Below, piece by piece: positions 468 to 42,915 of a DNA stretch of 42,915 nucleotides. The stretch is from a virus (lineage: Duplodnaviria; Caudoviricetes): the IMG/VR virus record IMGVR_UViG_3300033480_000007, positions 1 through 42,915 of that record, one strand, 5' to 3'. Under the pieces are notes generated by a model. It did not search any database and was not told the DNA's origin. It worked only from the letters and a program-made list of their open reading frames with translations. A program made the position numbers and the translations under genes. Position 1 is the stretch's first letter. Each line of letters opens with the position of its first letter.

Positions 468-470
468 GAC

Positions 471-499
471 TTGACAGAAAGATAAAAAGATGATACAGT
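471..499 (+). promoter_or_regulatory. sigma70-type promoter
   Basis: TTGACA-17 bp-TACAGT with TG extension. Confidence 0.6.
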
Positions 500-528
500 T
501 CTTGCGACAATCACCAATGGAGGGAATC

Positions 529-831: not shown

Positions 832-843
832 GAGAGCCACAAA

Positions 844-1602: not shown

Positions 1603-1611
1603 GAGGTTATT

Positions 1612-2019: not shown

Positions 2020-2021
2020 TC

Positions 2022-3035: not shown

Positions 3036-3068
3036 TAGGTCATTATTAATACATCATATGAACTAGAC

Positions 3069-3113
3069 TGGCTTGCTCCTACTCACTGGATGCCTCTGCC
3101 AGAATCACCTAAC
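3069..3113 (+). pseudogene. Remnant of a DUF551-like phage gene C-terminus
   Basis: Reads WLAPTHWMPLPESPN; THWMPLP is the typical DUF551 ending; no intact upstream gene body. Confidence 0.55.
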
Positions 3114-3197
3114 GATAAGTTGAGGGGGCGCACTATGACTGACGAACAAGAAACGAAACACGCTTTTGCGCGCTCCTGCTCGAACGCAGGGTTGGAC
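3107..3197 (-). mobile_element. Solo integron attC site (canonical top strand = minus)
   Basis: Minus strand: GTCCAAC-CCTGC-GTT(C)GAG...CTCAAC-TTATC-GTTAGGT. Confidence 0.85.
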
Positions 3198-3353
3198 AAC
3201 GCTCTCCAGATAGCATTTGTTCAGGGTGCCGCATGGTGGGAGGAAAGATCAACCGGCGGAACAATGTGGGCATCTGACCGCGACGACGCAGAGGCTGAGG
3301 CATTTGCCAAAATGTGCAATGGCACTCTTGGCAAGGTGTCCAACAAAGACTAG
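3135..3353 (+). CDS. Cassette-associated hypothetical protein
   Basis: ORF 3090..3353; ATG at 3135 with GAGGGG SD lies inside the attC. Confidence 0.55.
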   Translation: MTDEQETKHAFARSCSNAGLDNALQIAFVQGAAWWEERSTGGTMWASDRDDAEAEAFAKMCNGTLGKVSNKD

Positions 3354-8400: not shown

Positions 8401-11400
8401 CTTTGGTTGAGCTTAATCCTTTTTTTGACCATTCGGGGCCAATACGGACAGCATCATTTGGAAATAGTTCGAGTAAAGTTCCCTTTAGGTTATCGGCGTT
8501 CCAACTCCCAGCATCACGCAACCGCAATGGGTTTTTGATGGATAGATACACTGGAATCAATCGCGGATTGGTATAATCACTACCGAATTTATTGGTATAG
8601 CTCACACGGTCATTGGCTTGACCAGCATCACCAAAGTGAATACCAATATCACCGGGGCTGCGTTTGAAACTTTCAAAGTCTACCTCGGTTTGCGTTCCAT
8701 GATAAACCACCAGCGGCTTACCCTCTGCATCAACTACCTTGCTGTCACCGAACCACCGCTTGAATGCTGGCGTTTCTGTCTGGTTAATTTTGCTATATGC
8801 TGGCTCTATACCAACAGACTCAGTGCCACTAGCAGCCTCCATCTTTCCACTCGCCAAATCCTTCATATTGGATTTTGCCAGAGCAACATAATCATCAATA
8901 CTAAGGTCTTTCGCACCAAGCCAGATGTTGTTCTTGTACATCGCAGCACGCACGTTAGCCACCCACTGCTTGAGAATATTTACAACATGTTCAGGAAGTG
9001 CTTTCTGCGCCCAACCCCAAAATCCAGTATCAATGCGCGAATGGCCTGCTGTCTTACCCATCTTCATTGCTTCTTCTACAATGTAACTGGTTGCCTCAGA
9101 TGAGTTTCCAGTCTCTCCTGCTGCTTCCATGCGTGCGCGAACACGAGAGTATATATCACCAGTGCCTGAGTTAGATGATTTGCTGAATAACGGCAAGCCT
9201 TCTATCAATACCTGTTCGCGCAGTTCTGGGGTGATGGTGAAGCCTTGCTGTGCAGGCAAAGACTCAGCTGGTGGAGTTGGCACAACTTTTGCACCCTCGT
9301 GTTCTCTCGCAACTGCCCACGCTTGACTATCGTGGTCTGTTCGGAGAATTAGTTCACCTTCTGCCCCAAGTACGTCGAGCGTTCGTTGTTCTGTGGTTAG
9401 CGGAAGACTGACACTCTCAACTTTCACTCCACCAAGCTTCTTCAGAATATCATTTGCTACTTGCGGTACGATCTGGTCGTAGTAGCCTTTCATGCCTTCG
9501 CCGCCTACTTTTAGATCAAGGCCAGATAGCACTTTACTTTGCGCGTCATCGCCGCCAGAATGGCCTTCACCAGCCACAATCTTTTTGGCAACATCTTTTC
9601 CGACAACATCTTCAAGCTCGCTCTCGGAGAATATCTTCTTTGGCGTGGAGACGCGCGCACCGTTTTTGTCAGTGACAATCAGGTGGTATCCCTCTTCTTT
9701 GTAACCGTCTTCTTTGCGATATTTTACATAGTCAATACTATCAATTTGCTTGCTCAAGTCATATCGCTCTGCCTGTTGCTCGCCGGTAGTCCATGCGATA
9801 CGGTCAAAGCCGTTTTCACTCGCGTAGCGAATCATCCGTTTCAGTGCGAGCGCAGTCCATGATTTTGTGTCTGAGACAAAGGGAGCAGCAGGAACAGGAA
9901 CTTTGCGATTTGCTAAATCTAATTGAGTTGCGCCTTTGGTTGAACCAAATCCTTGGCGTTTACCTTGTTGCCCCCAATCAGATTGAATTTCTTCAATGAA
10001 GAGAACTTTGTTTCCGTTCGCTTCTGTGCGCTCGTTGAAGCGGATATGGGCGAGGATGTTCGGCTGGTCGTAGTGGGATGATTGGAATTGCTCAGATCGT
10101 TTCTGCTCCGTGTAGTTTGCAGCAACATCTGCACGTTCAGCGTGAAGCTCTTTATACCGTTCTGGTGTTGTATCTGAGCGACCCATCTCATCGGCTATAG
10201 TTTGTAGCTTTTGAGCCTTAGTCTGGATGCTCTTCGTGGCTGGCAACGTCAGCAGCAACTCGCGGTAGTTCTCGCCTCCGGGTAGCTGGTAACTCTCGAA
10301 TTTCACAGCATCACCAGTATCTGCTCCCGCGAGGTCGTAATTCTGCGGTGCTTCTCTATACGCTCTGCGCGCCTCACCCAAGGTGTCAAACCCTAGCAAG
10401 TCTGCACTCCTGAGTGCATTATCGAGTGCTTCTCCCTCTAGCTTACCGCCAAGTGTCACTTCCTCGACCCGTACTCCGCCTTGCTCAAGAAAGGCCACCA
10501 CGTCCTGCTTGCTGACTTTGCCCTGTGCTTCCAGCCAGTCGTTGATGCCAGACCAGTAAATCTCGTCCTTCTTCACGCCTAGCTTTGGAGCGTTTGAGTT
10601 CAGCCACAGCTTTAGGTTTTTTCCTGTGGTGAATAATTTATCAGGCGCTGAGTCTATTGCTTTTGCAAGCTGAGAGTATAGACCAAGCTCATTCTTTGAT
10701 ACGCTCTTTTGCATTGCACCAGTTTGATTTTCTACAGACTCCATCCCAAGCAAGCGCAAGCTATTCTCATTCAGTGCCTTGCTTTGTGGTGTGTTGTCTG
10801 CCATGTGCATTATTTCATGCAGCACAACAGCAGGAACATCATTGGAATTAATGCGGTCTGTATTTACAAAAGCAGTGCCAAGTTCAGGATGATAGAACCC
10901 ACTGGTGAATGTTCTATCACCAGTTGATACGTCTTTGCTCAATGGTACAACAGATGGAGTTATAACTTTCCATCCTTGCGAGTCGTTCTGGACTCTACCA
11001 CCATATTCAGATGCAATCCTGTGAGCGTCTGCTTCATCGCGTGCGCGAATTTCAGATAGCATGCCAGAGGATTTCTGTATGAATGCCTGATGTATGTCTG
11101 ATTCACCAAAACGCTGCGGATAGGTGATTTCACGAACATCAAAAATTTCAGATATGAACGGTTCGCCAGTGCGCTTCTTGCTGTATCCAAGCACAGAATC
11201 ATAACCAGCCTTACGCACTTCATGTGCTACAATATTTTCCTGAACGGCATACGGCAATGTGTTACCCATGCGGCTGTTATGCACAATCTCAGCAGCGTTG
11301 CGCTGGTCAGCACCATAGCGTTTTAGCATTTCACGCACGTTATCAATTTTTTGCGATGTGTCTTTGCCAAATCCAACCGTAGCGTTTAGAACATCATTGC

Positions 11401-14400
11401 GCATATTTCGATACGCACCTTTACCAAGCAAGCTATCATAAGCAGCCTCTGGTGCTTTCCCGCCAGTAGCTCCCTTAACAAATAATGGAGCGCGTAGCAA
11501 GGTTGTATCCTGATATTTTTCTGTTCCTCCGTATCCTGTTTTGCCTGTTGCGTAAAATTTTGCGTTAGCAGAACCAGTAGGCAAGTAAAACACGCCAGTG
11601 CGAATAGAGGTAGCACCTTCCTGCTCCGGTTTCTGAAAGCGCGTAACATTTAGCAATACGCCATGCTCTGTGATGGATGCGCCGGGAGTATTGGAAACTG
11701 CCTGCTTGAATTCTGGAATATCAGGAATCTTGGTTGTGATATTGGTTTTCATTGCCTGCGCAGGTGTAATGCTGTTCTGCACTGCATCTGCAATAGCTTT
11801 GCGCTCCATATCAACATCAGTGCCGTGCTTCTGCGCCATCATCTGCGCAGCACGGTCAATATTTGATTGCTGATCGCCAAATACCAGACCACCGCGCTTG
11901 CCTTGTGCTGCGCGTTCAAGCATCTGTTGTGCTGCTTTGCGCATGCCTGATGGCATGGAAGCAAGAGCTTTTGCTGGATTTGTATTGTGTGCGCGTTGTG
12001 CTGCAAACTGAGATTCTTCGCGTGGCAATACAGAGCGTTGCACGTCAGGCTTGACGATCTTTGCTGCATCACCAAGCAATACTGCGGCTCCATGTTTACC
12101 AAAGAATCCTTTGACATAATAACCATCAAATCCGTGGTCAAGTACCGCACTCTCAAACTTGTTACCACCATCCAGTGCAGGCGAAGGCAGCTTTAGTGGA
12201 TTGGTCGTTCCATCATACAAATTATTAAGTAGCACTGTATGTTTGACATATCCCACACCAGATTCCGGTATAACTCCTTTGCCTTCGTCAACATAGAATG
12301 CAATGCGATTTTTCAGGCGTGAATCACTTGTGTTCATCAGTCTTGCGCGTTCTGCACCGGGCATGCCAGTACCAAACTTGCTGCCTAGTATTTCTTCGCG
12401 TCTAACATTTGAGAAGTGTGTTCCGGTCATTGGAGGAACTTCGCCTGCCTTTAATGCCTCTGCTGTAGGGTGAGTTCCTTCTGGAGTCAAGAAATATTCT
12501 GGATTAAACGGCTTCCATTCATGCGCAGCAGGCCCGTATAGCTCTCCCTTGCCATGCACGATTTGCGCAATAGCTTGCTGCTTCAAGTCTGCACTGAATT
12601 TTGTTGCTTCTGCTGGCGTTAGTGGGCGCGATAGTGATGCAGAAAAAGTTTGCTCAGTATCTGATTGATGAATGGCGGAGCGCGTTACTTGCACGCCAAG
12701 CTTATCAAGTTCTGCGCGTACTTGCTGCTCAGTCAATGGTGGAGAATTTTCACCACCAACCTCAGTGGTGTTTAGTCCTACATTGATTAAATTTTCTTTG
12801 GCTTGTTCGCCAGCATTCCGGTTGCCTTCTCCGGTAGATTCATTCCCTTGCTGGCTGCGTTGAATTCCGCCAGTTTTTTGGCTCCCAACTTCTCCGGGTG
12901 CGCGTTCAGAAACGCCTGCTGCTTTCTGCTCTTGAATGGCATTTTTTTCTCCTATTGTGACTCCGGGAGGTTGCTCTCCACGTTCAGCACGTAATCCAAG
13001 TCTGGTTTGCTCAACTTTGTGCAACAACATCTTGGAGTCTGCTTCATGCAGTGTTGCCCCAAGTCCATAACTAAAACCAAGACCTTTTACGGTAATCTGC
13101 TTGCCGTTTACTGCTCCGGTAATGGTTGCATCTTTGAGTGCATCTTGAGCGCGATGTAACGCATTGGTAACGTCAGTGGCTGTATGCCCCTGTACAACCA
13201 ATTCATCACCACTCACATGATAGGCTTCTGGAGTTTCTGCGGATAGCGCACGCGCAACTTTTTGCAGCAATTCATCTCCTGCCGCATGCCCCATATTATC
13301 GTTAATCCACTTTAGGCTGTTTACGTCAATGGATGCTTGGATAGGGAGTTTTGTAGACCATTCGTATGCGCGATTATTTTTGATTCCGCTTTTTTGATTG
13401 AGCAGCAATGCATCATATTGTTCTTCCTGCGACATGGCGGCAATACGGGCGCGATTATCCAGCAATGCACGGCGCTCTGCATTGCGATGTTCTTCTGATA
13501 CAGCCTCATTATGATTGCGCCTGCCTGTCAGTTCGGAAGCAAGTCCGGTTCCTTGTATTCCGGGTTCTCCATTCTCAGGTAATCCGGTGGCGTGCTGAAC
13601 CGTGGCGTTTTCCTGTGCCACAGCGTTACCTTTTCCAGCAAGTCCATTATCTGATTGTACTGGTTCGGCGTTAGCAGCCACTCCGATGCTGGATTCTCCT
13701 GATTGTGCATGACCGCCAATTCCCTGAACAGCAGCAGTTGGTATTCCCTCTCCGTTATTATCTGCTCTAGGTACGCCTTGCGCAATATCTTCGGCTCGTA
13801 CATTTCCAGTTGCGTTGTCATTTTGCACCTCCTGTAACTTGCTTGTCGCTTCGTTAAGAATGGCTTGACTTGCCTGCGTTGCTTCATCTACGGTTTGTGC
13901 TGCATTTATTTTATCTGCTGTGGTAGCATCCAGTGCGCGTATGTCTTGCAATATATCAGAAACTGATGTGGTTGGCAAGGCTGGTTGAACGATCACTGGC
14001 TTGCGCATGAACTGTTGTAGTTTACCAGCACCAATACCAGCAGCCTTAAATGCCACGCCAACAGCACCAAACATGGCGGCAGTGTTACCAATCTGTTGTG
14101 GTTGTATGTTGCCTTCAAGAGCCTCAGTAGCAGCCTCGCCAGTAGCTCCTATCGCTGCTCCACGAGCAGCAGTTTCAGCAATCTTAACTGCGGCTCCAGC
14201 CTTGGCAACAGCAGCAGCCATTTTAGCTGGAGCGGCTTCCCATAATGCCGGGAATAATAACTCAGGGTCAGCAGCCAATCCTTTACCAAAACCAATTACC
14301 GCATCCAATGGGTGCGTAGCCAGTTGCTCACCCATAGCTTTCAGAGATTCAATCACTCCCGGCGTTTGTTGTTCTGGTGGTAATTGAGATTTTAAGAGCG

Positions 14401-14854
14401 CGTCAGTCTTGGCTATTTCATCTGGTGTCAAGGTAAGCTTTGCGGCTTCCTCACCCAATACTTTAGCACCACGTCCTAACCAGCCAGTAGCATAAAATGG
14501 CTGTTCTTCTGGTACTGGTTGCGCAGATTTAACTGGTAAAGCAGGAGTATTACCCAAAACCTGTTCGGTTTGATCTATGGCCTTCGCTGCTGCCTTTGTT
14601 GGGATGGCTGGCTCTGGTACTACGTTCTTGCCATTTGCGTTCGCCACAGCGTTGTATGCGTTGTTTACGGCTGTGTCCTGACCGGCTGGCGTAATGCTCA
14701 TGTCTTGATTTACGTCAATCTTTGGTGCGCGTTGCTGCGCAAGTTCTTCTGGAGATAAGAGCCAGTCAGACGGAACTTTTGCTGCAATATCTGCGCGAGT
14801 AGTGCCTTCTGGCACTCCTGTCAGAATTTTACCTGATGGTAATTGAATATCCAT
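5471..14854 (-). CDS. Giant polyvalent internal virion/ejection protein (GGDEF-like, SAM-lyase-like, ART-like x3, zincin, FIEEIQSD domain)
   Basis: 3127 aa at the end of the ejection-gene block; motifs INDNMGHAAGD/SGDEL, HEIMH, VVYHGT..GYDG..QIKSA. Confidence 0.85.
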   Translation of the reverse strand: MDIQLPSGKILTGVPEGTTRADIAAKVPSDWLLSPEELAQQRAPKIDVNQDMSITPAGQDTAVNNAYNAVANANGKNVVPEPAIPTKAAAKAIDQTEQVLGNTPALPVKSAQPVPEEQPFYATGWLGRGAKVLGEEAAKLTLTPDEIAKTDALLKSQLPPEQQTPGVIESLKAMGEQLATHPLDAVIGFGKGLAADPELLFPALWEAAPAKMAAAVAKAGAAVKIAETAARGAAIGATGEAATEALEGNIQPQQIGNTAAMFGAVGVAFKAAGIGAGKLQQFMRKPVIVQPALPTTSVSDILQDIRALDATTADKINAAQTVDEATQASQAILNEATSKLQEVQNDNATGNVRAEDIAQGVPRADNNGEGIPTAAVQGIGGHAQSGESSIGVAANAEPVQSDNGLAGKGNAVAQENATVQHATGLPENGEPGIQGTGLASELTGRRNHNEAVSEEHRNAERRALLDNRARIAAMSQEEQYDALLLNQKSGIKNNRAYEWSTKLPIQASIDVNSLKWINDNMGHAAGDELLQKVARALSAETPEAYHVSGDELVVQGHTATDVTNALHRAQDALKDATITGAVNGKQITVKGLGFSYGLGATLHEADSKMLLHKVEQTRLGLRAERGEQPPGVTIGEKNAIQEQKAAGVSERAPGEVGSQKTGGIQRSQQGNESTGEGNRNAGEQAKENLINVGLNTTEVGGENSPPLTEQQVRAELDKLGVQVTRSAIHQSDTEQTFSASLSRPLTPAEATKFSADLKQQAIAQIVHGKGELYGPAAHEWKPFNPEYFLTPEGTHPTAEALKAGEVPPMTGTHFSNVRREEILGSKFGTGMPGAERARLMNTSDSRLKNRIAFYVDEGKGVIPESGVGYVKHTVLLNNLYDGTTNPLKLPSPALDGGNKFESAVLDHGFDGYYVKGFFGKHGAAVLLGDAAKIVKPDVQRSVLPREESQFAAQRAHNTNPAKALASMPSGMRKAAQQMLERAAQGKRGGLVFGDQQSNIDRAAQMMAQKHGTDVDMERKAIADAVQNSITPAQAMKTNITTKIPDIPEFKQAVSNTPGASITEHGVLLNVTRFQKPEQEGATSIRTGVFYLPTGSANAKFYATGKTGYGGTEKYQDTTLLRAPLFVKGATGGKAPEAAYDSLLGKGAYRNMRNDVLNATVGFGKDTSQKIDNVREMLKRYGADQRNAAEIVHNSRMGNTLPYAVQENIVAHEVRKAGYDSVLGYSKKRTGEPFISEIFDVREITYPQRFGESDIHQAFIQKSSGMLSEIRARDEADAHRIASEYGGRVQNDSQGWKVITPSVVPLSKDVSTGDRTFTSGFYHPELGTAFVNTDRINSNDVPAVVLHEIMHMADNTPQSKALNENSLRLLGMESVENQTGAMQKSVSKNELGLYSQLAKAIDSAPDKLFTTGKNLKLWLNSNAPKLGVKKDEIYWSGINDWLEAQGKVSKQDVVAFLEQGGVRVEEVTLGGKLEGEALDNALRSADLLGFDTLGEARRAYREAPQNYDLAGADTGDAVKFESYQLPGGENYRELLLTLPATKSIQTKAQKLQTIADEMGRSDTTPERYKELHAERADVAANYTEQKRSEQFQSSHYDQPNILAHIRFNERTEANGNKVLFIEEIQSDWGQQGKRQGFGSTKGATQLDLANRKVPVPAAPFVSDTKSWTALALKRMIRYASENGFDRIAWTTGEQQAERYDLSKQIDSIDYVKYRKEDGYKEEGYHLIVTDKNGARVSTPKKIFSESELEDVVGKDVAKKIVAGEGHSGGDDAQSKVLSGLDLKVGGEGMKGYYDQIVPQVANDILKKLGGVKVESVSLPLTTEQRTLDVLGAEGELILRTDHDSQAWAVAREHEGAKVVPTPPAESLPAQQGFTITPELREQVLIEGLPLFSKSSNSGTGDIYSRVRARMEAAGETGNSSEATSYIVEEAMKMGKTAGHSRIDTGFWGWAQKALPEHVVNILKQWVANVRAAMYKNNIWLGAKDLSIDDYVALAKSNMKDLASGKMEAASGTESVGIEPAYSKINQTETPAFKRWFGDSKVVDAEGKPLVVYHGTQTEVDFESFKRSPGDIGIHFGDAGQANDRVSYTNKFGSDYTNPRLIPVYLSIKNPLRLRDAGSWNADNLKGTLLELFPNDAVRIGPEWSKKGLSSTKDIREFLQSKGYDGVVYRNTGEVAGGERYAQEQSRATKAMIESQRRRGKPVSTYDQEDQKTPEYQAHKAAYEAYTKFREDNAKDSYIAFERTQIKSAIGNRGTFDAANTNIHKSIGVQSEPKEQASTKLGMLTTSEKRASDLKDALVNEFQMAVMPMAAGSAKYRAIAKDYANADRASRMQWSRFDAVLKNEYTQEQRQAMWEAADEQNVLMQLGLSTKGKGLDRLPADQRETMNTLHAYGEELLQRAKDTGMFKGEGLPYWTPRMAVMIGDDGEYSIPPRTGQNETGASVGRNITTTSPSLKQRKYLTSSETEAAMKGKFGEQATLVRDIRAMPMAMQRLERAIAGRELINQIRELGKNIGEDLISDGAQPGYFTLDHPAFKTYRPRMTEVDGKHVPVTDQNGEMVFDRVPLYMRDDLKGPLTAIMSESSGKVYQALMEFKGKTMTVIMYSPLIHNAVEFGRALPMLPGKVATFRVYFEGNVAKHDNAIMREAIGYGLVPIGHRYGLQDISGIMEEPNLKPGRSLTAKAIGGAVGLLHEGAGDAVKRGIDTAGDVWHNTLLWDRVADLQMGIYVNLKQMETAKLLKQGLTQEQAAGTAGHIAAHMANRYAGALPNESMSNMSRKITNLAFFSRSFTIGNLGVMKDVFTGLPRDVQAQIQRDYGDLALRAGKNIARRKAIGAFIIDIGLMYAMNSVMQDTFDYLKRDQSLSDIEQGYVERMNKLLHKTQENPLEVLNSPLDSAASLTTTSTNEPGKENRELYDYDKNGTGIYVRLPTGKIGEEFIGWTTEPLDMLKRKESTFLRPITQTATNDLGFGRRVYNPDDPGVAGAVRNVGKVVKNFMVQQIPTEALKSALHLAGNNGDETDAYKVLGPLLGLTFSKGAPGGPAVGEMYTANSQRRAAIADLMPEVNQKIKDGEIDAAVLQMANAGMTQSEIKLVITHQLTPGARLNSNAIKQFYKKATPEQRERMDAQLSK

Positions 14855-35456: not shown

Positions 35457-35519
35457 ATAAAAATTATCGCTTGACACTTTATCCATTGCGTGTTACTTTT
35501 GTGCCTGCAAAGTATCTAT

Positions 35520-35597
35520 TGGTCAGAGTGGTATGATTTGAACATACGATCTCTCGCGTCCAAGGCGAGTGACTTAACCAGACTAGCCTACACTCTG
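35520..35597 (-). tRNA. tRNA-Pro(UGG)
   Basis: Acceptor CAGAGTG/CACTCTG, anticodon arm CTCGC-CTTGGAC-GCGAG, TTCAAAT loop, encoded CCA. Confidence 0.92.
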
Positions 35598-35599
35598 AA

Positions 35600-35674
35600 T
35601 GGAAGCGGGTATTGGAATCTAACCAATGACCTAGAGCTTATGAGGCTCCCGCGCTAACACTGCGCCAACCCGCT
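35600..35674 (-). tRNA. tRNA with CAU anticodon (Met or Ile2)
   Basis: Acceptor AGCGGGT/ACCCGCT, arm GGAGC-CTCATAA-GCTCT, encoded CCA; atypical T-loop TTAGATT. Confidence 0.8.
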
Positions 35675-35711
35675 ATATTTGAATGCCTAACCAAGCGCAT
35701 ATCTGAACGTG

Positions 35712-35752
35712 ATTGTATCACAAATCACGCAAAAAAGCAAGTACACACTAAC
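35712..35752 (-). promoter_or_regulatory. Repeated promoter driving the tRNAs, plus operator-like box
   Basis: GTTAGTGTGTAC-TTGCTT-17 bp-TACAAT. Confidence 0.75.
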
Positions 35753-35755
35753 TAT

Positions 35756-37105
35756 TTAATATCCTACACCACTATCATAAATTTCTGGTGGCTCGTAATC
35801 TGGAACTTCATCAGGTTTGTGCTTGGTCAATGATGGGAATAATGCATAAATACACCAGATTGCTGCATCAGCACGGTTAGGGGATTTATCACCATGATAC
35901 CCATGTGTAGTAAACCCAATCAATTCTTCCTCCAGTTCATGCATCTTGCCAACATGACGCACCTTACCTTGGAAATATAACGCGCTAACTGGTTCAGAAC
36001 GCACCACCTTTCCACGTGTGGCTGTGACCTTTTTGAATGGTACTCTTGGATTGGCTGCGCGAATAACGAATTTCACCATCGCACCACCATAGTTAGTTTC
36101 ACCAATCACAATGTCTGCGTCATGCTGTTCATAAGCATCTGTGGCTACCTTTCCCCACACGCCCGGCCCCGCCTTGACTGTACGATCTTCCAATATGTAT
36201 GCGTTACCATCCACCCCAAGACCAGCTATCACAATCCCTATCGCATCGTTGGTTTCATTATCAGTGTCATCTGCACCAGATGGGTCAACCCCAACAACAA
36301 TGCGCACCATATCTGGCAAATCATCTGCATCTAGGACACGGTATTTCTCAAAGTTATCTTCGTCAAATAATGCGTCTGGATTTGCCTCGCCAAATTCACC
36401 ATCACGGAAACGCCTGCGCTTGGCTGCACTAAGGCTATTCAATGTTTCAATATATCCACGTCCAAGATTATCCACGTTATCTGTTGGGTTCATCTGCATG
36501 GAAGTATAATCGTCTGGTGTGCGTAGCGGCCTGTTATCGTCAGGGTCTACCTTTTTAATAAATAGCTTGTAGCTCCAATGAGATTTTCGTGGAGGGTTTT
36601 CATCGTAAAACATTTTCAGGCGCATTTCTCGCTCTTGCTGACCTTCAATCTGTACGTTGACTTTTTGAGCTAGGCGTGTTGTAACTGTTTGTCTTGAATC
36701 ATTACTGATTTGGCTACATTCATTTAACAGTATCGTTACAAACTCTTTTCCCAAGACCTTTTCCGTCCTGTCTGCATCATCAAGACCAGCAAACCATAAT
36801 TCAGAACCATTAGGAAATTTCCAATAGTAATCCACCTTGTCAAGATGCCCACCAACATCAGGGAAGCATTCACGCATAACCTTGGGGAATGTATCAAGAA
36901 CGATAGCCTGCTTAATACGATTAAATCTGAATCCAAGTATTCCATGCCTAGAATTTGGTGCAAGCTGCGCCCTTGTTACGATAGCGCGAACAGCAAGGAA
37001 TGTTTTTCCAGACCGAGAACCACCATACAACAGAATGTGAGCAGCAGAACCAGCAAGCAGACGATTAGCCTCTTGCTGTTTTTTGGTTAAGCGGAATAAA
37101 GACAT
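35756..37105 (-). CDS. terL: Terminase large subunit
   Basis: YGGSRSGKT Walker A, ILLNEC Walker B, DENPP, RIVVGVDPS nuclease motif, SPNRADA. Confidence 0.95.
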   Translation of the reverse strand: MSLFRLTKKQQEANRLLAGSAAHILLYGGSRSGKTFLAVRAIVTRAQLAPNSRHGILGFRFNRIKQAIVLDTFPKVMRECFPDVGGHLDKVDYYWKFPNGSELWFAGLDDADRTEKVLGKEFVTILLNECSQISNDSRQTVTTRLAQKVNVQIEGQQEREMRLKMFYDENPPRKSHWSYKLFIKKVDPDDNRPLRTPDDYTSMQMNPTDNVDNLGRGYIETLNSLSAAKRRRFRDGEFGEANPDALFDEDNFEKYRVLDADDLPDMVRIVVGVDPSGADDTDNETNDAIGIVIAGLGVDGNAYILEDRTVKAGPGVWGKVATDAYEQHDADIVIGETNYGGAMVKFVIRAANPRVPFKKVTATRGKVVRSEPVSALYFQGKVRHVGKMHELEEELIGFTTHGYHGDKSPNRADAAIWCIYALFPSLTKHKPDEVPDYEPPEIYDSGVGY

Positions 37106-37175
37106 TATATGTGTTTTGTTCTATTCTAGTAATATGTCCGCATAAAAATTTATCCGGGCAGGTGCATAATACACG

Positions 37176-37388
37176 TTATACCGCTACCGTTTCATCGTTC
37201 TTTATCCATCTCCACACGTAGATCGTACTGGAGTTTTTGAATTTGATTGTGAAGCCTACGCGCCAGTCCAATCCGCAAGCCTTGATGTTGCACTCGACCC
37301 AATCTTTTATTTCCTGCTTGGTATTCTTGCGCTGTCCGCCGACATCTTGTTCTTGCCCATCAATTTGCGCCATCAATTTGTACCGCAT
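37176..37388 (-). CDS. Cassette 1 hypothetical protein
   Basis: MRYKLM with GGAGA SD; stop inside the GTTATAC core. Confidence 0.7.
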   Translation of the reverse strand: MRYKLMAQIDGQEQDVGGQRKNTKQEIKDWVECNIKACGLDWRVGFTIKFKNSSTIYVWRWIKNDETVAV

Positions 37389-37407
37389 CACATCTCCCAA
37401 GAAAATC

Positions 37408-37470
37408 GTATAACTCAGCGTTCGAGCGGGACGCTGGTGAAGCGCCGCGCCCCTCAACTAATCGTTAGGC
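37408..37470 (+). mobile_element. attC site
   Basis: GTATAAC-TCAGC-GTT(C)GAG...CTCAAC-TAATC-GTTAGGC. Confidence 0.9.
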
Positions 37471-37626
37471 ACCAATCCACACCAGCTCAGTGCCAAGCCA
37501 AAACAGGCTAATGTTCTTGCCCCATCTAACAACTTTCGGTGTCCACCTGAATTTCGGGTATCCACCAGAAAACAAAAGCCGTCCGTCAATCAGCACTTTG
37601 TTTCTCGTCCAGTCATGTATCTTCAT
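37465..37626 (-). CDS. Cassette 2 hypothetical protein
   Basis: MKIHDW, 53 aa; stop in core. Confidence 0.65.
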   Translation of the reverse strand: MKIHDWTRNKVLIDGRLLFSGGYPKFRWTPKVVRWGKNISLFWLGTELVWIGA

Positions 37627-37644
37627 CGTCAACCTTTCTGCCGC

Positions 37645-37702
37645 GCCTAACACGGCATTCAAGGCGGACTGCTTCGCAGCCGCTTAATTTTGTTCGTTAG
37701 AT
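37645..37702 (+). mobile_element. attC site
   Basis: GCCTAAC-ACGGC-ATT(C)AAG..CTGCTTCGCAG..CTTAAT..GTTAGAT, classic 59-base-element form. Confidence 0.92.
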
Positions 37703-37867
37703 ACTCGCCAAAATACCTTGGCAATCTCGTTTCGCATTCCCGCGCACAATGCATCCACACTTCGGCCATGATTTGCAGTCTTGCGGCTTGTGCGCGTCTT
37801 TTTCGTGCTGGTTGCGATGCGACGCTTTCTCGAATTCCTTGTCGCATTTTCGGCATTTGATAATCAT
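37697..37867 (-). CDS. Cassette 3 C2H2 zinc-finger protein (56 aa, not in the ORF track)
   Basis: MIIKCRKCDKEFEKASHRNQHEKDAH..., GGAGG SD, stop in core. Confidence 0.75.
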   Translation of the reverse strand: MIIKCRKCDKEFEKASHRNQHEKDAHKPQDCKSWPKCGCIVRGNAKRDCQGILASI

Positions 37868-37879
37868 CCCCGCCCCTCC

Positions 37880-37900
37880 GTATCTAATTCTGCGTTATGC
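37880..37900 (+). mobile_element. Collapsed attC
   Basis: GTATCTAA fused directly to TTCTGC-GTTATGC. Confidence 0.7.
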
Positions 37901-37933
37901 CCCCTATCACAGAGTGGCGGTTCGTTAAATTAC

Positions 37934-38026
37934 CTACACTTTGTTGATGCCTTCCCACCCTTTGTCAGTTACCCAGCTTGGGTCAATATCACCGCTACCG
38001 GCTCCAATGCTTGCGTCTCCGTCCAT
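37934..38026 (-). CDS. Cassette 4 peptide (30 aa)
   Basis: AGGAGG SD 8 nt before ATG; MDGDASIGAG... Confidence 0.5.
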   Translation of the reverse strand: MDGDASIGAGSGDIDPSWVTDKGWEGINKV

Positions 38027-38054
38027 AGTTCTCACCTCCTTCCCGCCCCGATGG

Positions 38055-38123
38055 GCATAACCTTACATTCGAGCGGGACTGTCCGATAAAAGCCTCGTCC
38101 AGCCCCTCAATTACACGTTAGGC
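38055..38123 (+). mobile_element. attC site
   Basis: GCATAAC-CTTAC-ATT(C)GAG-CGGGACTG...CAGCCC-CTCAAT-TACAC-GTTAGGC. Confidence 0.92.
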
Positions 38124-38237
38124 ACTTCTGATTACCCATCCAAAATGAGCCGGGTAAACTTTCGCTGCATCTTCGTATGACCGAAACTTAACTGTTTCGA
38201 CATATTTTCCGTGCTGGTAAATATCAAAGTATTTCAT
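38118..38237 (-). CDS. Cassette 5 peptide (39 aa, not in the ORF track)
   Basis: MKYFDIYQHGKYVETVKF..., AAGGA SD, stop in core. Confidence 0.65.
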   Translation of the reverse strand: MKYFDIYQHGKYVETVKFRSYEDAAKVYPAHFGWVIRSA

Positions 38238-38253
38238 TTCAAATCCTTTCCGT

Positions 38254-38337
38254 GCCTAACTTTACGTTCGAGCGTAGCGCCCGAAGCGTGGTTGTTGTTC
38301 AAAAATTTATACGCGCCCGCTCAACTTCTAGTTATGC
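38254..38337 (+). mobile_element. attC site
   Basis: GCCTAAC-TTTAC-GTT(C)GAGCG...CGCTCAAC-TTCTA-GTTATGC. Confidence 0.9.
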
Positions 38338-38556
38338 CCCATGATTCTTCGCCATTTCAAATGCCTGTTTCATGCACTCAACATATTCCGCCGCTTCCGA
38401 AATATCGCTGGGCAGGCAGGTGCTCGATCCTGTGTGCCACTTGCCGAAAATCTGGTTTGAGAGAGTGATAATTTCGCGGTCATTTACATACCCGGTAATC
38501 CGCGTCACCGCTTCGTTGCAGCTTTTCGTCACTTCAATTTTTATTGCCATTTCCAT
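38332..38556 (-). CDS. Cassette 6 hypothetical protein
   Basis: 74-aa ORF (ATG at 38550 fits the SD better); stop in core. Confidence 0.7.
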   Translation of the reverse strand: MEMAIKIEVTKSCNEAVTRITGYVNDREIITLSNQIFGKWHTGSSTCLPSDISEAAEYVECMKQAFEMAKNHGA

Positions 38557-38570
38557 CTCCCGTTAAAGGC

Positions 38571-38650
38571 GCATAACTACTCGCTCAACACCGCTCCACT
38601 TCGTTCCGCTCGGACACGCCTACGGCGTGCCGGTTATGTTGACGTTAGAC
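38571..38650 (+). mobile_element. attC site
   Basis: GCATAAC-TACTC-GCT(C)AAC...CACGCCTACGGCGTG-CCGGTTA..GTTAGAC. Confidence 0.85.
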
Positions 38651-38820
38651 GCCAATCTCGAACGCATGGAATACCAGCGCCCCGCCTTGCGTAGTTTGGA
38701 CGCGTACTTTCGCAGCCGCTCGGCGTCGTCCCGATGCACCCACTCTTGCACCGGCACCAGTCCCGCCTCGCGCTTGCGCTCTCGTTCCTGTTGCTTCCGC
38801 ACTGCTGCGGTGGCGCTCAT
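38620..38820 (-). CDS. Cassette 7 basic DNA-binding/antitoxin-like protein
   Basis: RKQQERERKREAGLVPVQEWVH pattern; ATGA coupling; reads into the attC. Confidence 0.6.
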   Translation of the reverse strand: MSATAAVRKQQERERKREAGLVPVQEWVHRDDAERLRKYASKLRKAGRWYSMRSRLASNVNITGTP

Positions 38821-39074
38821 GCCAGCAACCTCTTCAACGCTGCTACTTGCTTCTTCGCTTCGCGCTGCGCTGCCTTGTCGCCGTACTCGCAAATCAGTTC
38901 ATCGTTACTCTGATGCCCACCTTCAAAGAAACAGGAAAGCACATACTTGGCCTCGCTCAATATCTCTGCGTCCGTGTAGCTTTCTAGCTTCCGCTTATCG
39001 TCGGCGGCAATGTTCTGCAAACTCACTTCCAATTCCCGAATCTTAAGCGCTTTCTGCAAAATCGTCTGCTTCAT
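38817..39074 (-). CDS. Cassette 7 hypothetical protein
   Basis: MKQTIL with AAGGGG SD, downstream of the promoter. Confidence 0.7.
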   Translation of the reverse strand: MKQTILQKALKIRELEVSLQNIAADDKRKLESYTDAEILSEAKYVLSCFFEGGHQSNDELICEYGDKAAQREAKKQVAALKRLLA

Positions 39075-39103
39075 GGTCTGCCCCTTTATCAAGTTACAAA
39101 CCA

Positions 39104-39132
39104 ATTATAGCATGTGACATGTCACAAGTCAA
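39104..39132 (-). promoter_or_regulatory. Cassette-internal promoter with palindromic operator
   Basis: TTGACT-17 bp-TATAAT; TGTGACATGTCACA palindrome at 39113-39126. Confidence 0.85.
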
Positions 39133-39137
39133 GTGCG

Positions 39138-39225
39138 GCATAACCCGTCATTCCAGCGAACCGCGCCGAAGCGTGGCACGCTGTAGTTTAGTTGTCAGCG
39201 CGGTCGCTGAATTCAGGCGTTAAGC
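39138..39225 (+). mobile_element. attC site
   Basis: GCATAAC-CCGTC-ATT(C)CAGCGA...TCGCTGAAT-TCAGGC-GTTAAGC. Confidence 0.92.
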
Positions 39226-39231
39226 ACTGGC

Positions 39232-39444
39232 TTATTGATTGTATGGATATTCGAGTGCGCGTTTAACCGCAGCAAGCGTATTTTCTGCATTCTCGCGCTT
39301 GGTTTCCTCTGAAAGATGCTCTAATTGCAGGGACAAAAACATTTCTGTTATCTCCGCCGCCGAGTACGGCGTCCTCCCATCTTCCTTGCATAAAACTCGC
39401 TCACGCTCGTTTATGTAAATTACATCTGTTTTGTATTTCATCAT
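39232..39444 (-). CDS. Cassette 8 hypothetical protein
   Basis: 70-aa ORF filling the cassette. Confidence 0.65.
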   Translation of the reverse strand: MMKYKTDVIYINERERVLCKEDGRTPYSAAEITEMFLSLQLEHLSEETKRENAENTLAAVKRALEYPYNQ

Positions 39445-39467
39445 TCATCTCTTAGTTGTTGGTTCGT

Positions 39468-39554
39468 TCCTAACCCGTCATTCCAGCGAACCGCGCCGAA
39501 GCGTGGCACGCTGTAGTTCATTTCTCAGCGTTGACGCTGAATTCTGCGTTATGC
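39468..39554 (+). mobile_element. attC site
   Basis: TCCTAAC-CCGTC-ATT(C)CAG...CTGAAT-TCTGC-GTTATGC; left half identical to the previous attC. Confidence 0.9.
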
Positions 39555-39764
39555 CCCATAGTACGGGCAGTGGTCTTGAAATTCGGTCTTGCGGTTTATC
39601 CATCCATGCTTATTGTATGGATGGATTGCATGTATCCACGCCTTGCACGCCGGAAGTGGTGGCAGTTTATATTCGTAGGTGCATTTACCGTCGCCAGACG
39701 GATGCAATTTCCCAGCGTCGGTTTTCTTCCATTCCGCAAATTTGCAGCCTTTACAGTTTTTCAT
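39549..39764 (-). CDS. Cassette 9 Cys-rich protein
   Basis: MKNCKGCK...GKLHPSGDGKC; stop in core. Confidence 0.75.
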   Translation of the reverse strand: MKNCKGCKFAEWKKTDAGKLHPSGDGKCTYEYKLPPLPACKAWIHAIHPYNKHGWINRKTEFQDHCPYYGA

Positions 39765-39784
39765 TTCATTCTCCGTTAAAACCG

Positions 39785-39803
39785 GCATAACTTTTAGTTA
39801 GGC
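39785..39803 (+). mobile_element. Collapsed attC
   Basis: GCATAAC-TTTTA-GTTAGGC. Confidence 0.7.
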
Positions 39804-40022
39804 ACGGTTGTAATAAGTGCAGTGATCTTTCAAATCGCTGCGCCTGTTTATAAACCCACCGCATGGCTTGGGTTCGTTCGTCGTGTGCCAATACATGCTC
39901 GCCGGTAACGGTGGCAAGGTATAGACGAATGCCATTTTGCATTTACCATCACCTGACGGGTGCAATTTCCCCGCTGCTGTTTTCTTCCAGTCAGCGTGTT
40001 TGCAATCTGTGCAGTTTTTCAT
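39798..40022 (-). CDS. Cassette 10 Cys-rich protein, paralog of cassette 9
   Basis: MKNCTDCK...GKLHPSGDGKC; stop in core. Confidence 0.75.
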   Translation of the reverse strand: MKNCTDCKHADWKKTAAGKLHPSGDGKCKMAFVYTLPPLPASMYWHTTNEPKPCGGFINRRSDLKDHCTYYNRA

Positions 40023-40204
40023 TTCATTCTTCACCTATTCGCGGTTGGTTATGTAGCCTAAAGGCTCCTGCTTCCTGCTATCTTCAATCTGCTGGCGCAG
40101 AGATGCGTTCTCTATCTCTAATTGACGAGCAATTGCCACATCAACCACAGCAATATGATTGTCTATATAAAATAAACTAGCATCCGTGATTGGAGTTGTG
40201 TTCA

Positions 40205-40432
40205 TTATGCCCTCCAGACGAAAAACAGACTTCCATCTTCCTCAAATTTCTTAATCTCTCCGTGCGACACATTCTGCCAACACAGAGCGCCATCATTGGG
40301 TATGCCAGCCGCAATAAGCTGGTCAGTGATATACAGGTTCCATTCCATTACTGACTTGAATTTCTCACGGTCAGAACACGGAATGCATACGCTAATATCT
40401 GGTACGTGTTTGTTTTGTGCCATGTTCATCAC
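40205..40432 (-). CDS. Hypothetical protein
   Basis: 75-aa ORF abutting the upstream ORF. Confidence 0.55.
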   Translation of the reverse strand: MMNMAQNKHVPDISVCIPCSDREKFKSVMEWNLYITDQLIAAGIPNDGALCWQNVSHGEIKKFEEDGSLFFVWRA

Positions 40433-40642
40433 CTACGGAATAGTAACCACAACAATTACAGCAGTAACAATAATACGCCATATTGAGCCGTATTGCTGCA
40501 CCCTTCCAGAATACAATGACGCAACACAGTGCGCATGTTGTTCATTTTGTACTTCAACCGTTTTTTGTGATGCATTCAGCATGCGCACTACACATGGTAT
40601 CATCACTCTCATGCCATTATTGTAACATATAATATGTTGCAT
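40433..40642 (-). CDS. Hypothetical protein
   Basis: MQHII start with GGAGG SD, downstream of the promoter. Confidence 0.55.
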   Translation of the reverse strand: MQHIICYNNGMRVMIPCVVRMLNASQKTVEVQNEQHAHCVASLYSGRVQQYGSIWRIIVTAVIVVVTIP

Positions 40643-40675
40643 GACAACCTCCATTTGGTATTTTTCTGAGATTGC

Positions 40676-40745
40676 ACGGTACTACAAATCACATAAAAAG
40701 TCAAGTTAAATTTCTCTTGACATTTAAAAACTGCTATGGTAATGT
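40676..40745. promoter_or_regulatory. Divergent promoter pair
   Basis: Minus: TTGACT(40704)-17 bp-TACCGT; plus: TTGACA(40717)-17 bp-TAATGT. Confidence 0.5.
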
Positions 40746-40789
40746 GCGTCACATGAAAGATTGATTAACGTAACAAATGGAGCCACAAA

Positions 40790-41494
40790 ATGAAAACGAT
40801 TACCCTGAAACAATTAAAGGATGCTGATGCTTGCGCAAAGCAAGTCCGGTTGTTTGAAAAAACATTTGGCGGAGAAGTTGAAGTAACTGTTGGGGCTGCG
40901 CTGGAATACGCACATGTGTTTGATTTTGATTTTGCTGCGCGTAATTTTCTGGAGCAGGCTGCATGGAAAGATTACAAGGAAGAAACGGCTGCTGCATGGA
41001 AAGCTTACAATGAAGCAATGGCTCCTGCACAGAAAGCTTACAATGAAGCAACGGCTGCTGCACAGAAAGCTTACGATGAAGCAACGGCTCCTGCACGGAA
41101 AGCTTACGATGAAGCAAAGGCTGATGCATGGAAAGCTTACAATGAAGCAACGGCTCCTGCACGGAAAGCTTACGAGGAAGCAACGGCTCCTGCACGGAAA
41201 GCTTACAATGAAGCAACGGTTGCTGCACGGAAAGCTTACAATGAAGCAACGGCTCCTGCACGGAAAGCTTACAATGAAGCAACGGCTCCTGCACTGCAAT
41301 CTTACAATGAAGCAACGGCTCCTGCACAGAAAGCTTACAATGAAGCAACGGCTGCTGCACAAAAAGATTACAAGGAAGCAACGGCTGCTGCATGGAAAGC
41401 TTACAATGAAGCAACTGCTCCTGCACGGAAAGCTTACGATGAAGCAATGGCTGTGGCCTTTGCAACGGCTTATCTTAATCAACAGGAGAAATAA
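40790..41494 (+). CDS. 11-residue-repeat helical protein, copy 2 (15 repeats)
   Basis: Near-identical N- and C-termini to 844..1350. Confidence 0.85.
   Translation: MKTITLKQLKDADACAKQVRLFEKTFGGEVEVTVGAALEYAHVFDFDFAARNFLEQAAWKDYKEETAAAWKAYNEAMAPAQKAYNEATAAAQKAYDEATAPARKAYDEAKADAWKAYNEATAPARKAYEEATAPARKAYNEATVAARKAYNEATAPARKAYNEATAPALQSYNEATAPAQKAYNEATAAAQKDYKEATAAAWKAYNEATAPARKAYDEAMAVAFATAYLNQQEK
40958..41452 (+). repeat. 33-bp coding tandem repeat, 15 units
   Basis: Units such as cctgcacggaaagcttacaatgaagcaacggct. Confidence 0.95.
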
Positions 41495-41617
41495 ATGAAC
41501 ACACCAACAATACCAGTTACACAACCTGCATCACCTTGGAGTAAAATCGTACCGCTATCAAAGGTGGTTACACCAAAACCACCAGTAGTGCGAGTTATCA
41601 AGGGTAAGCAGTATTAA
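41495..41617 (+). CDS. Pro-rich 40-aa peptide
   Basis: TAAATG coupling with AGGAG SD; MNTPTIPVTQP... Confidence 0.35.
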   Translation: MNTPTIPVTQPASPWSKIVPLSKVVTPKPPVVRVIKGKQY

Positions 41618-42213
41618 GCAAGGTCAGCATCATCTTGGCTAATGATTACCTTACCTGCGTTGATGCTGACACCACCATCTTTCAACAATCCAAAATGACG
41701 CATGGCACGGTCTATGGCTTGTATTTTATCAAACGCTTTAAACTTACGCGTTTCTCCAACCACCTTCATACCAGTATCAGTTTTTTCTTTATCCAAATAA
41801 ACATCAATCCCTGACACGGCAGCAGCAGTATCATCATCCAATTCATCTACATTTTTTAGAGTGCCATCAGGATTGTACAGCTTTCGTATATCGAACTGCA
41901 CTATGGCGGCAAGTTGCTGCATCACACTGTCAGCAGTCAGATTAAATTTCTCCTGTTTGGATTCCATCTTTGCTTTGAGTTTTTCTTGAATATATGGCAC
42001 GCGCAGCAGATTACATGCGATAGCTGATGCTGTTTTTTCAGAATACCCGGCTGCAATAGCAGATGCTTTCCCGTTGCTCCATGTGTGACCTTTAGCCACA
42101 TATGCAGCTATGAATAAATCATAGCGCATCTTTGTAGACGCGCATATTTTTGCAGGCTCACCCGGAACTCTCTTGGCTCTCTTTGGTGGTTTAATAGTGC
42201 GCTTGTTTGTCAT
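41614..42213 (-). CDS. terS: Terminase small subunit
   Basis: FIAAYV..NGKASAIAAGYSEKTA..IACNLL HTH motif; LYNPDGTLK; DKIQAID...HFG. Confidence 0.9.
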   Translation of the reverse strand: MTNKRTIKPPKRAKRVPGEPAKICASTKMRYDLFIAAYVAKGHTWSNGKASAIAAGYSEKTASAIACNLLRVPYIQEKLKAKMESKQEKFNLTADSVMQQLAAIVQFDIRKLYNPDGTLKNVDELDDDTAAAVSGIDVYLDKEKTDTGMKVVGETRKFKAFDKIQAIDRAMRHFGLLKDGGVSINAGKVIISQDDADLA

Positions 42214-42315
42214 GATCGTCTGGTTGAGCTAAATATGATATGGCCCCGATAGACAGGCTGGTAAATATAATACCAACCAACAAACCAAGCAGGAATGCTA
42301 TCATCAGGCCAGCCA

Positions 42316-42528
42316 TTACAATTTCTCTACAGTTGTAGCAGATGGCTTGATGGTTGAACTGAGATGAGAACCTATTGACTCCGAATTCAGCATAGCCTGA
42401 TATTGCTGCGATGAAATACCGTGGTAGTTGTATTCTCCGCCATTCAAAAATCGCACGCGCAATATGTTCTGCTCAGGGTCATGGCCTATTGAATCAATGT
42501 TTGTTGACTTTACTTTCTTGAGATTCAT
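42316..42528 (-). CDS. KTSC-domain protein
   Basis: VKSTNIDSIGHD...LRVRFLNGGEYNY.GI....Y..ML.SESIGS. Confidence 0.9.
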   Translation of the reverse strand: MNLKKVKSTNIDSIGHDPEQNILRVRFLNGGEYNYHGISSQQYQAMLNSESIGSHLSSTIKPSATTVEKL

Positions 42529-42712
42529 CTTTTGGTTCCTCACGAATGACAAAATAAATACCATCACCAACTACCACTGTGGTTTTTTGATGCGGATTCA
42601 GCACGGATTTATCCAGAGACATTTTGCCTCCACCGTCCAGTAACGTAATACGTTCAACCACCAATTGATTCCGTGATTGACCATCCTGATTCTCTATCAG
42701 AATTTTTATCAT
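42494..42712 (-). CDS. Hypothetical protein
   Basis: 72-aa ORF in operon context. Confidence 0.55.
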   Translation of the reverse strand: MIKILIENQDGQSRNQLVVERITLLDGGGKMSLDKSVLNPHQKTTVVVGDGIYFVIREEPKDESQESKVNKH

Positions 42713-42714
42713 AT

Positions 42715-42915
42715 TTAGTCTTTCGTCAAGATGTGTCCGTCAGCGCCCAACAACCTGACATTCACATTATCATCAACAGTACCAGTATTACCAGCTGCAC
42801 CAGGTTCATCTTCTCGCCCTATATCAGAACCCCATTCTTCCTCACCAGCAAAAGCATTTGGTATAATCAATTCACCAGTTGGGCATAAGTCAACAATAAT
42901 GGCAGCAGCAAGTTT
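42715..42915 (-). CDS. Partial hypothetical protein (5' end outside the window)
   Basis: Open frame from the window edge: KLAAAIIVDLCP...ILTKD*. Confidence 0.5.
   Translation of the reverse strand, partial: KLAAAIIVDLCPTGELIIPNAFAGEEEWGSDIGREDEPGAAGNTGTVDDNVNVRLLGADGHILTKD

Follow-up and report, generated by a model that had tools for sequence, protein, structure and literature searches.

Introduction

Integrons are regarded as devices of bacteria and have lately been seen also as reservoirs of anti-phage genes. In the usual cassette layout, a top-strand open reading frame (ORF) lies upstream of its own attC site, although bacterial arrays may include single self-promoted cassettes in inverted orientation. 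Clusters of attC sites lacking an integron integrase (CALIN) have also been described in phages: the text of Qi et al. (2023; PMC9892861) gives 17 in 10,705 genomes, a frequency treated there as low, and reports that phage attC sites were recombined by IntI1 in E. coli. Here we analyze a stretch of 42,915 nucleotides ("the window"), IMG/VR record IMGVR_UViG_3300033480_000007 (Duplodnaviria; Caudoviricetes), which is a linear, partial tailed-phage genome with an estimated completeness of 58%. A first-pass annotation of this DNA had proposed an integron cassette array with all genes inverted, in the interval between the terminase genes terS and terL. The inverted cassettes are almost certainly genuine. 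We consider it probable that these ten attC-bounded cassettes, which end at an attI-like site, were built by an integron integrase (IntI) acting in trans, most likely a host chromosomal one.

Results

The array consists of attC-bounded cassettes with genes on the bottom strand

The array contains seven full attC sites, and an eighth belongs to a separate single cassette elsewhere in the window (Table 1). All eight have the layout R''-spacer-L''...L'-spacer-R' with the conserved AAC and GTT. A scanner for R/L-box pairing returned six sites in 37,100–40,100, against a mean of 0.037 and a maximum of two in 300 dinucleotide shuffles. A covariance model scored the seven array sites at 26.9–56.2 bits on the plus strand and at most 15.2 bits on the minus strand, a test that is partly circular, since many of the 69 bacterial attC sites on which the model was trained were found with a pattern derived from the array. 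Six of the array sites and the eighth site display all nine canonical R/L pairs, an extrahelical G on the bottom strand and paired L boxes, and the predicted probability of the recombinogenic fold in the six intact array sites is 0.008–0.68. Scanner, covariance model and pairing thus uphold the seven plus-strand sites of the first-pass annotation, six of them intact and one (site 5) degenerate. With two attC sites or more in a stretch of a few kb, and without a nearby integrase match, the array has the make-up of a CALIN.

The array comprises ten units of 198–575 bp, close to the roughly 200–575 bp given earlier, and holds 11 ORFs. The usual layout is absent: as had been claimed, all 11 ORFs are on the minus strand, which is the bottom strand of the attC sites. 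This direction is backed by homologs for cassettes A (11 proteins) and J/I (58 proteins). Complementarity across a unit, between its left core and its right inverse core, is 7/7 in six of the ten units, 6/7 in two and 5/7 in two. In seven of the ten, the stop codon and the crossover TTA are complementary.

Searches of PHROG, Pfam and the ESM Atlas gave no function for the cassette proteins of the window. Cassette F has no real relative in IMG/VR; for cassette A one viral relative was found, which is without attC. The second ORF of cassette G, which has a weak match to phrog_536 (E 0.004) and a Pfam MazE-like match below the cut-off, possibly encodes a ribbon-helix-helix regulator. Cassettes I and J form a tandem pair of paralogs sharing 58% identity, and a two-codon mini-ORF overlaps the start codon of each.

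The single cassette, which ends the plus-strand early genes, is also inverted: its ORF starts inside the attC site, and a complementary core lies at 3338–3344. Its attC site (3107–3197) shares 85% identity with an attC of phage locus L461, and its edge scores poorly on all attI matrices.

Table 1. Coordinates of the array, its edge and neighboring features in the window
Feature	Position	Strand	Details
terL	35756..37105	-	phrog_979, E 7e-72; immediately downstream of array
attI-like simple site	37160..37181	+	terL-side array edge; predicted crossover G/TT at 37175/37176
Cassette A ORF	37176..37388	-	70 amino acids (aa); stop on crossover core; cores 7/7; homologs 52–87% identical
attC site 1	37408..37470	+	56.2 bits; 9/9 canonical pairs
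Cassette B ORF	37465..37626	-	53 aa; stop on core; no PHROG or Pfam match
attC site 2	37645..37702	+	41.4 bits; 93% identity over 56 nt to attC of phage locus L461
Cassette C ORF	37697..37867	-	56 aa, Cys/His-rich; stop on core; zf-C2H2 match below cut-off
Collapsed attC	37882..37900	+	inverse core fused to core, L boxes and loop gone; read from sequence
Cassette D ORF	37934..38026	-	30 aa, Gly/Asp/Ser-rich; very strong ribosome-binding site; cores 7/7
attC site 3	38055..38123	+	54.7 bits
Cassette E ORF	38118..38237	-	39 aa; stop on core
attC site 4	38254..38337	+	31.4 bits
Cassette F ORF	38332..38556	-	74 aa; stop on core
attC site 5	38571..38650	+	26.9 bits; 6/9 pairs; degenerate L' box; predicted unable to take recombinogenic fold
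Cassette G	38620..39074	-	two overlapping ORFs, 85 aa and 66 aa; second runs through attC site 5
Promoter candidate, sigma-70-type	39104..39132	-	inside cassette G; 11/12 consensus matches
attC site 6	39138..39225	+	43.4 bits; bottom-strand fold z = -3.8
Cassette H ORF	39232..39444	-	70 aa; cores only 5/7 complementary
attC site 7	39468..39554	+	92% identity to site 6 over 74 nt
Cassette I ORF	39549..39764	-	~71 aa, Cys-rich; J paralog; stop on core
Collapsed attC	39785..39803	+	two cores separated by 5 nt
Cassette J ORF	39798..40022	-	~74 aa; widespread phage family, 58 homologs; stop on core; decayed inverse core only (40056–40062)
Promoter candidate	40619..40647	-	upstream of array; 10/12 matches, extended TG
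terS	41614..42213	-	phrog_51, E 2e-24
Separate single cassette	3107..3353	attC -, ORF +	attC 3107–3197, ORF 3135–3353; 44.7 bits; cores 7/7

Inverted cassettes predominate in phage arrays and canonical ones in bacterial arrays

Viral and bacterial cassettes were tallied with one narrow attC pattern, one script and the same crude ORF caller. The pattern yielded 64 loci in IMG/VR and at least 157 rows (at least 156 loci) in GTDB genomes, 80 loci with flanks. The better ORF was on the bottom strand (inverted) in 104 of 147 viral cassettes and on the top strand (canonical) in 119 of 144 bacterial cassettes among the matches listed (Fisher p about 1e-20, with rows that are not independent). Counted by locus, 31 of 45 viral loci were inverted, five canonical and nine tied; the 45 bacterial loci, again among the matches listed, comprised 38 canonical, four inverted and three tied. 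Among the same bacterial matches the median cassette length was 454 bp, compared with 283 bp for viral cassettes. As an independent check, PHROG matches were found in 27 of 138 bottom-strand ORFs and in 2 of 143 top-strand ORFs; the matched bottom-strand ORFs include seven DNA methyltransferases and one Mom-like protein. Only 2 of 26 inverted-call ORFs from bacterial arrays had a PHROG match, and the bacterial inverted calls are probably mostly caller error or non-phage genes. In the window, G004, G006 and G490, where a single genome has attC sites on either strand, those of both strands are inverted, so polarity follows gene direction.

Several individual genomes were also inspected. MW202573 (L254:2069-3738), a published phage CALIN example, is inverted, with attC on the minus strand and annotated genes on the plus strand. 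On re-examination TJE1 is canonical, and M16-3 looks canonical on two weak matches; the covariance model built here had no match in P12002L or in the initial 50 kb of H101. Genome G128, which is unpublished, underlies none of the claims. The 58.5-kb provirus G490 (L544-L546) carries four attI-like edges and ~31 attC sites, whose arrays occupy both strands, and has no PF00589 match. It also contains the attC types of window sites 2 and 8, a J-family cassette, and a 2667-aa protein that shares a stretch with a 3127-aa protein of the window.

Of 109 contexts of the I/J family, 96 are bare genes of phage operons. By eye, about ten were classed as inverted cassettes whose attC bodies differ, and in J-family loci inverted attC sites outnumber the others 26 to 1. 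In the family tree (72 columns, poorly resolved) the cassette label is scattered, and ~4 of the 13 automatic labels are expected by chance. Scattered cassette forms on so weak a tree fit repeated cassette formation and repeated attC loss equally.

These counts bear on whether the array could be a captured piece of a host integron, or a set of chance insertions of host cassettes, its inversion being accidental. The text of Qi et al. (PMC9892861) does describe phage capture of chromosomal integron segments, and the attC bodies resemble bacterial ones. Host arrays are canonical, however, and so is the first cassette in 24 of the 26 bacterial intI loci where it could be classified; the cargo here is of phage type, the J family consisting mainly of phage-operon genes and its attC sites being nearly all inverted. 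We regard such an origin as extremely unlikely.

The gene is reversed within an otherwise canonical cassette

Which attC site accompanies each gene can be read from the cores and from cassettes shared between phages. Perfect 7/7 complementarity spans the cassette in 119 of 147 viral cassettes and is found within the site in only 30 of 147. Among 202 viral cassettes there are four pairs with at least 70% core identity, two informative and two non-discriminating. In both informative pairs identity extends from the TT of the left core to the G of the right attC, exactly the G/TT crossover point; the right attC is kept (96–97% identity) and the left attC is lost (35–41%). The attC lying upstream of the start codon is therefore the one that moves with the gene, and the reversal concerns the gene alone. 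The opposite arrangement, a mirror geometry with the left-hand attC accompanying the gene, was rejected on the strength of this retention. The earlier description of a mirror-image system thus holds for gene direction and fails for site polarity, crossover point and travelling attC, all of which are canonical.

Further observations concern the mobility of such units. In phage genome G027 (L039, L375) one cassette is present twice, with different neighbors and exact G/TT borders. Two runs of another study, X5 and X6, contain attC bodies identical or near-identical to those of sites 2 and 5 (aligned at 37640–37700 and 38571–38631) with different flanks; therefore, the same attC body serves different cargo. 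One X5 joint (37469–38058) was rejected as an excision: one of its sides spans just 24 letters, the intervening sequence is unknown, and it was read as another cassette between similar attC sites.

It is scarcely credible that the hairpins are selfish repeats or RNA elements, such as terminators or processing sites, between ordinary genes. Each hairpin is on the sense strand and would form part of the mRNA, often overlapping a ribosome-binding site and start codon, as such an element might. Yet the complementarity spans the gene rather than the repeat, and gene-plus-attC units swap neighbors at G/TT, which a self-moving repeat would not produce.

The terL-side edge resembles a bacterial attI site

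The array ends 70 bp before the start of terL at an attI-like simple site. Of 793 YAAC positions, this edge ranks first on two matrices, one derived from the edges of other phage arrays and one from bacterial attI sites (7.6–8.3 bits), and its 7.6 bits on the latter lie within the range of real members. On the matrix of phage-IntI attI sites it scores -0.6, the leave-one-out median of that matrix's members being near 17, and with a longer phage-IntI consensus it reaches 7.4 bits (rank 10 of 85,738). On these scores the window lacks an attI of the phage-IntI type, and no intI is matched in the contig. Of 33 viral array edges, 17 fit the bacterial attI matrix best and 2 the phage-IntI matrix. 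The window's edge fits a TA motif that is found at 15 of 30 phage array edges, compared with a background of 3.5%, and its geometry is seen in front of authentic bacterial IntIs as well (19 of 31). No Pc-like promoter was found on the plus strand near the edge; the best promoter candidates face the opposite way.

The edge consists of two inverted half sites 6 nt apart and looks, as we take it, dif-like, which might suggest that a small Xer-type tyrosine recombinase serves these sites in place of IntI. Two array-bearing records (G013 and G021) do carry non-IntI tyrosine recombinases 2–3 kb from the array. We find this very unlikely, considering that the same geometry precedes bacterial IntIs, that the attC bodies correspond to the ones in bacterial integrons with IntI, that G013 has no evident attI-like site before its recombinase, and that neither the window nor five related records match PF00589.

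Bacterial and phage integrases as candidate motors

No gene in the window encodes a recognizable tyrosine recombinase, as had been noted: a profile search of the contig, 58% of the estimated genome, gave zero matches to PF00589 and TIGR02249. An IntI above the cut-off was found in only one of 50 array-bearing viral records (50 of 58 distinct records, 11 of them at least 90% complete). A search with that viral IntI returned ~40 IntI loci in IMG/VR, and 22 of 22 tested passed TIGR02249. At 21 of 39 loci attC lies upstream of intI on the opposite strand, and at none is it upstream on the same strand; 65 of 69 covariance-model matches at phage intI loci show the former arrangement. Crude calls at these loci gave 21 inverted and 10 canonical cassettes. 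In 8 of 11 scanned loci intI closes the operon, and a separate phage integrase comes next. Integrons of this kind would have cassettes, attI and intI read as one operon, a simple origin for the inversion.

In IntI trees (a quick tree and a FastTree tree, with L293 on a long branch, the duplicate L353, L355 and matches shorter than 250 aa excluded from one), 24 viral IntIs and one long-branch bacterial sequence form a clade with a support of 99–100. The viral sequences were collected by likeness to one query, which favors their clustering; the clade holds after the best matches from 401 bacterial genomes are added. A second clade of seven viral IntIs (L284-L287, L290, L292, L294) has no recognizable upstream attI or array, and in one of its members, L285, three attC sites lie downstream of intI on the same strand. 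At another phage locus (L260:2347-3861) a reverse transcriptase gene lies ~4 kb upstream of intI on the same strand; it may represent a diversity-generating retroelement, which would bear on how cassettes form.

On the bacterial side, attC site 4 shares 90% identity over 80 nt with an attC in the chromosomal integron of Methylomicrobium sp. Wu6 (L310/L540), and 88% with an attC of phage locus L056. The Wu6 integron, which is flanked by xdh genes, has three inverted cassettes adjoining attI, of which one encodes a phage-type NTP pyrophosphohydrolase and one has the attC that resembles site 4. Because of the bacterial-type edge, the inverted cassettes of Wu6 and the absence of an integrase from the contig, a host IntI in trans is the likeliest motor. 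As judged from sequence, such an enzyme would handle the cassettes of the window, and we lean towards a host enzyme supplied in trans and an array that in part is still mobile. This part of the first-pass annotation is accordingly favored and at the same time qualified, in that some phages encode their own IntI and 42% of the genome is missing.

The same cassettes could owe their assembly to a phage IntI, encoded in the missing part of the genome, lost from the edge, or supplied by a co-resident prophage. The existence of a well-supported phage IntI clade speaks for this, as does the position of cassettes upstream of intI in an operon, which explains the inversion directly. It is opposed by the score of the edge on the phage-IntI matrix, the short distance to terL, the lack of an integrase match and the near absence of IntI from array-bearing records. 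We judge a phage enzyme unlikely here, though by no means negligible as a candidate.

Expression and genomic setting

Two promoter candidates, at 40647 and 39132, both aim through the array toward terL. The number of promoter-like sequences in the region (eight) is not above that of shuffles (mean 9.8). A plus-strand gene pair (40790–41617) sits between terS and the array, and simple read-through from a terS promoter is therefore unlikely; transcription of the array from the two candidates is likelier. Between the hexamers of the candidate at 39104–39132 lies a palindrome of 14–16 bp, possibly an operator for the regulator-like product of the second cassette G ORF. The polarity might instead reflect replication, since excision is more frequent when the bottom strand lies on the lagging-strand template (PMC5371416).

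In a PHROG search, terS, terL, portal, capsid and lysis genes were assigned to the minus strand of the window, and ssb and other early-type genes to the plus strand at 42–3353. Two paralogous plus-strand genes (40790–41494 and 844–1350) contain 33-nt (11-aa) repeats and have near-identical starts; the former is divergent and lies between terS and the array. Directly beyond terL are genes for tRNA-Met(cat) and tRNA-Pro(tgg) (35520–35674, minus strand), and upstream of terS is a KTSC-domain gene (42316–42528, minus strand). The 3127-aa protein that shares a stretch with a G490 protein is encoded at 5471–14854 (minus strand) and has an ART-PolyVal ADP-ribosyltransferase domain and a GGDEF-like domain. 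The array had no blastn match in 50,697 GenBank phages, where attC site 1 alone gave one chance match, and Rfam found only tRNAs in 35500–42915, with no match for the attC sites.

Discussion

In the mechanism that we propose, IntI would fold the bottom strands of the attC sites and cut cassettes out as circles, which would then be inserted at G/TT of the attI-like site beside terL. The direction of insertion would be fixed by IntI, such that only bottom-strand genes could be read by phage promoters at the far end. Host cassettes arriving in the phage array would be antisense, and phage cassettes entering a host integron would face away from Pc. Given these opposed coding directions, the two pools would have sites and enzymes in common while being expressed separately. 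More tentatively, and with less than even confidence, we suggest a second, mirror-coded cassette economy among phages, in which ordinary operon genes would again and again be made afresh into attC cassettes that code on the bottom strand. Such cassettes would be exchanged between unrelated phages via attI-like docking sites, by host IntI and the phage IntI clade, and their reversed coding would insulate them transcriptionally from host cassettes, including anti-phage ones.

Several findings weigh against a mobile array served by a host IntI. The 7.6 bits of the edge are modest, with a runner-up at 7.0, on a matrix built from 28 automatically picked candidates, some probably wrong. Unconstrained bottom-strand folds clearly beat shuffles in only one of eight sites (site 6). 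The ORF caller is crude, and it called 43 of 147 viral cassettes canonical. With 58% of the genome covered, a phage integrase may be out of view. A terL search of 251 Methylomicrobium-family genomes gave no match. The eight closest terL relatives (52–59% identity) have no attC match and so offer no sister array for the interval between terS and terL. No usable joint for excision or reordering of the window's array was found in the contigs of six runs from two studies, data that cannot reveal rare excisions. Cassette-precise breaks at G/TT are seen in both informative pairs from other phages; a library still being shuffled in the window would be a step beyond this.

The array also bears marks of decay, with one degenerate site, two collapsed sites and a unit J without an attC body, and its decayed part is probably fixed in place. 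These marks would fit a fossil as a whole, i.e. real inverted cassettes built earlier or elsewhere, brought in as one block through homologous or illegitimate recombination and no longer mobile in this lineage. Imperfect cores in cassettes G and H, a second cassette G ORF running through site 5, the lack of variant arrays in the six runs, and the prevalence of J-family contexts without attC, which fits decay into ordinary genes, point the same way. Against this stand the six sites with all nine pairs and their predicted folds, and the perfect cores in six of ten units; rare excisions, moreover, would be invisible in contigs. We consider a fossil improbable, and prefer a host IntI acting in trans on an array of which part has decayed.

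If this is true, host IntI activity can serve the virus, and a phage-side pool with reversed coding would permit modular swapping of accessory genes, with methyltransferases and a Mom-like protein among the related cargo. The 64 IMG/VR loci obtained with one narrow pattern suggest that phage attC arrays are far commoner than cultured genomes show. Families that are both bare and attC-borne, e.g. J with its differing attC bodies, are material for studying the origin of cassettes.

The array can be compared with four described systems. According to Loot et al. (10.1101/2022.09.11.507474), IntI in trans seeds cassettes away from the integron by insertion at attG, giving single attC sites lacking integron integrases (SALIN). 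Such seeding is alike in mechanism and could explain the single cassette at 3107–3353, but it concerns ordinary cassettes in bacterial chromosomes and does not predict consistent inversion or phage cargo. Integrons with inverted integrases, as presented in PMC13323075, likewise depart from the usual orientation. There the integrase is flipped relative to attC, whereas here the cassette genes are flipped and the intI-attC geometry of phage loci is regular.

With the sedentary chromosomal integrons of Beta/Gammaproteobacteria (VchIntIA, PDB 2A3V) the array shares attC anatomy, the extrahelical base, the G/TT crossover, core complementarity, attC sequence families and an attI-like simple site. 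It differs in that genes are on the bottom strand, stop codons fall on the core and not the inverse core, cassettes are shorter and there is no adjacent intI. In addition, transcription would run toward attI from the far end, such that new cassettes would be read last.

In the texts reached by a literature search (including PMC13323075, PMC11551772, PMC8876359, PMC8352920, 10.1101/2022.09.11.507474 and 10.64898/2026.09.14.751636, most subscription papers being outside its scope), neither inverted cassettes in phages nor a clade of phage IntIs was found described. The closest relatives are the phage CALINs of Qi et al. (2023, PMC9892861), which are likewise integrase-less attC clusters with small genes, methyltransferases being found in the cargo of related arrays. 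Their text does not mention inverted genes, and MW202573 passes without comment on this point, although the figures or annotation file may show orientation; the window's array, in addition, ends in an attI-like site. Phage attC clusters as such are thus already published, and the inversion of the cassette genes is, to judge from that text, apparently the new part. The array in the window is a CALIN with an attI-like end, within an apparently undescribed phage variant of the integron cassette system.

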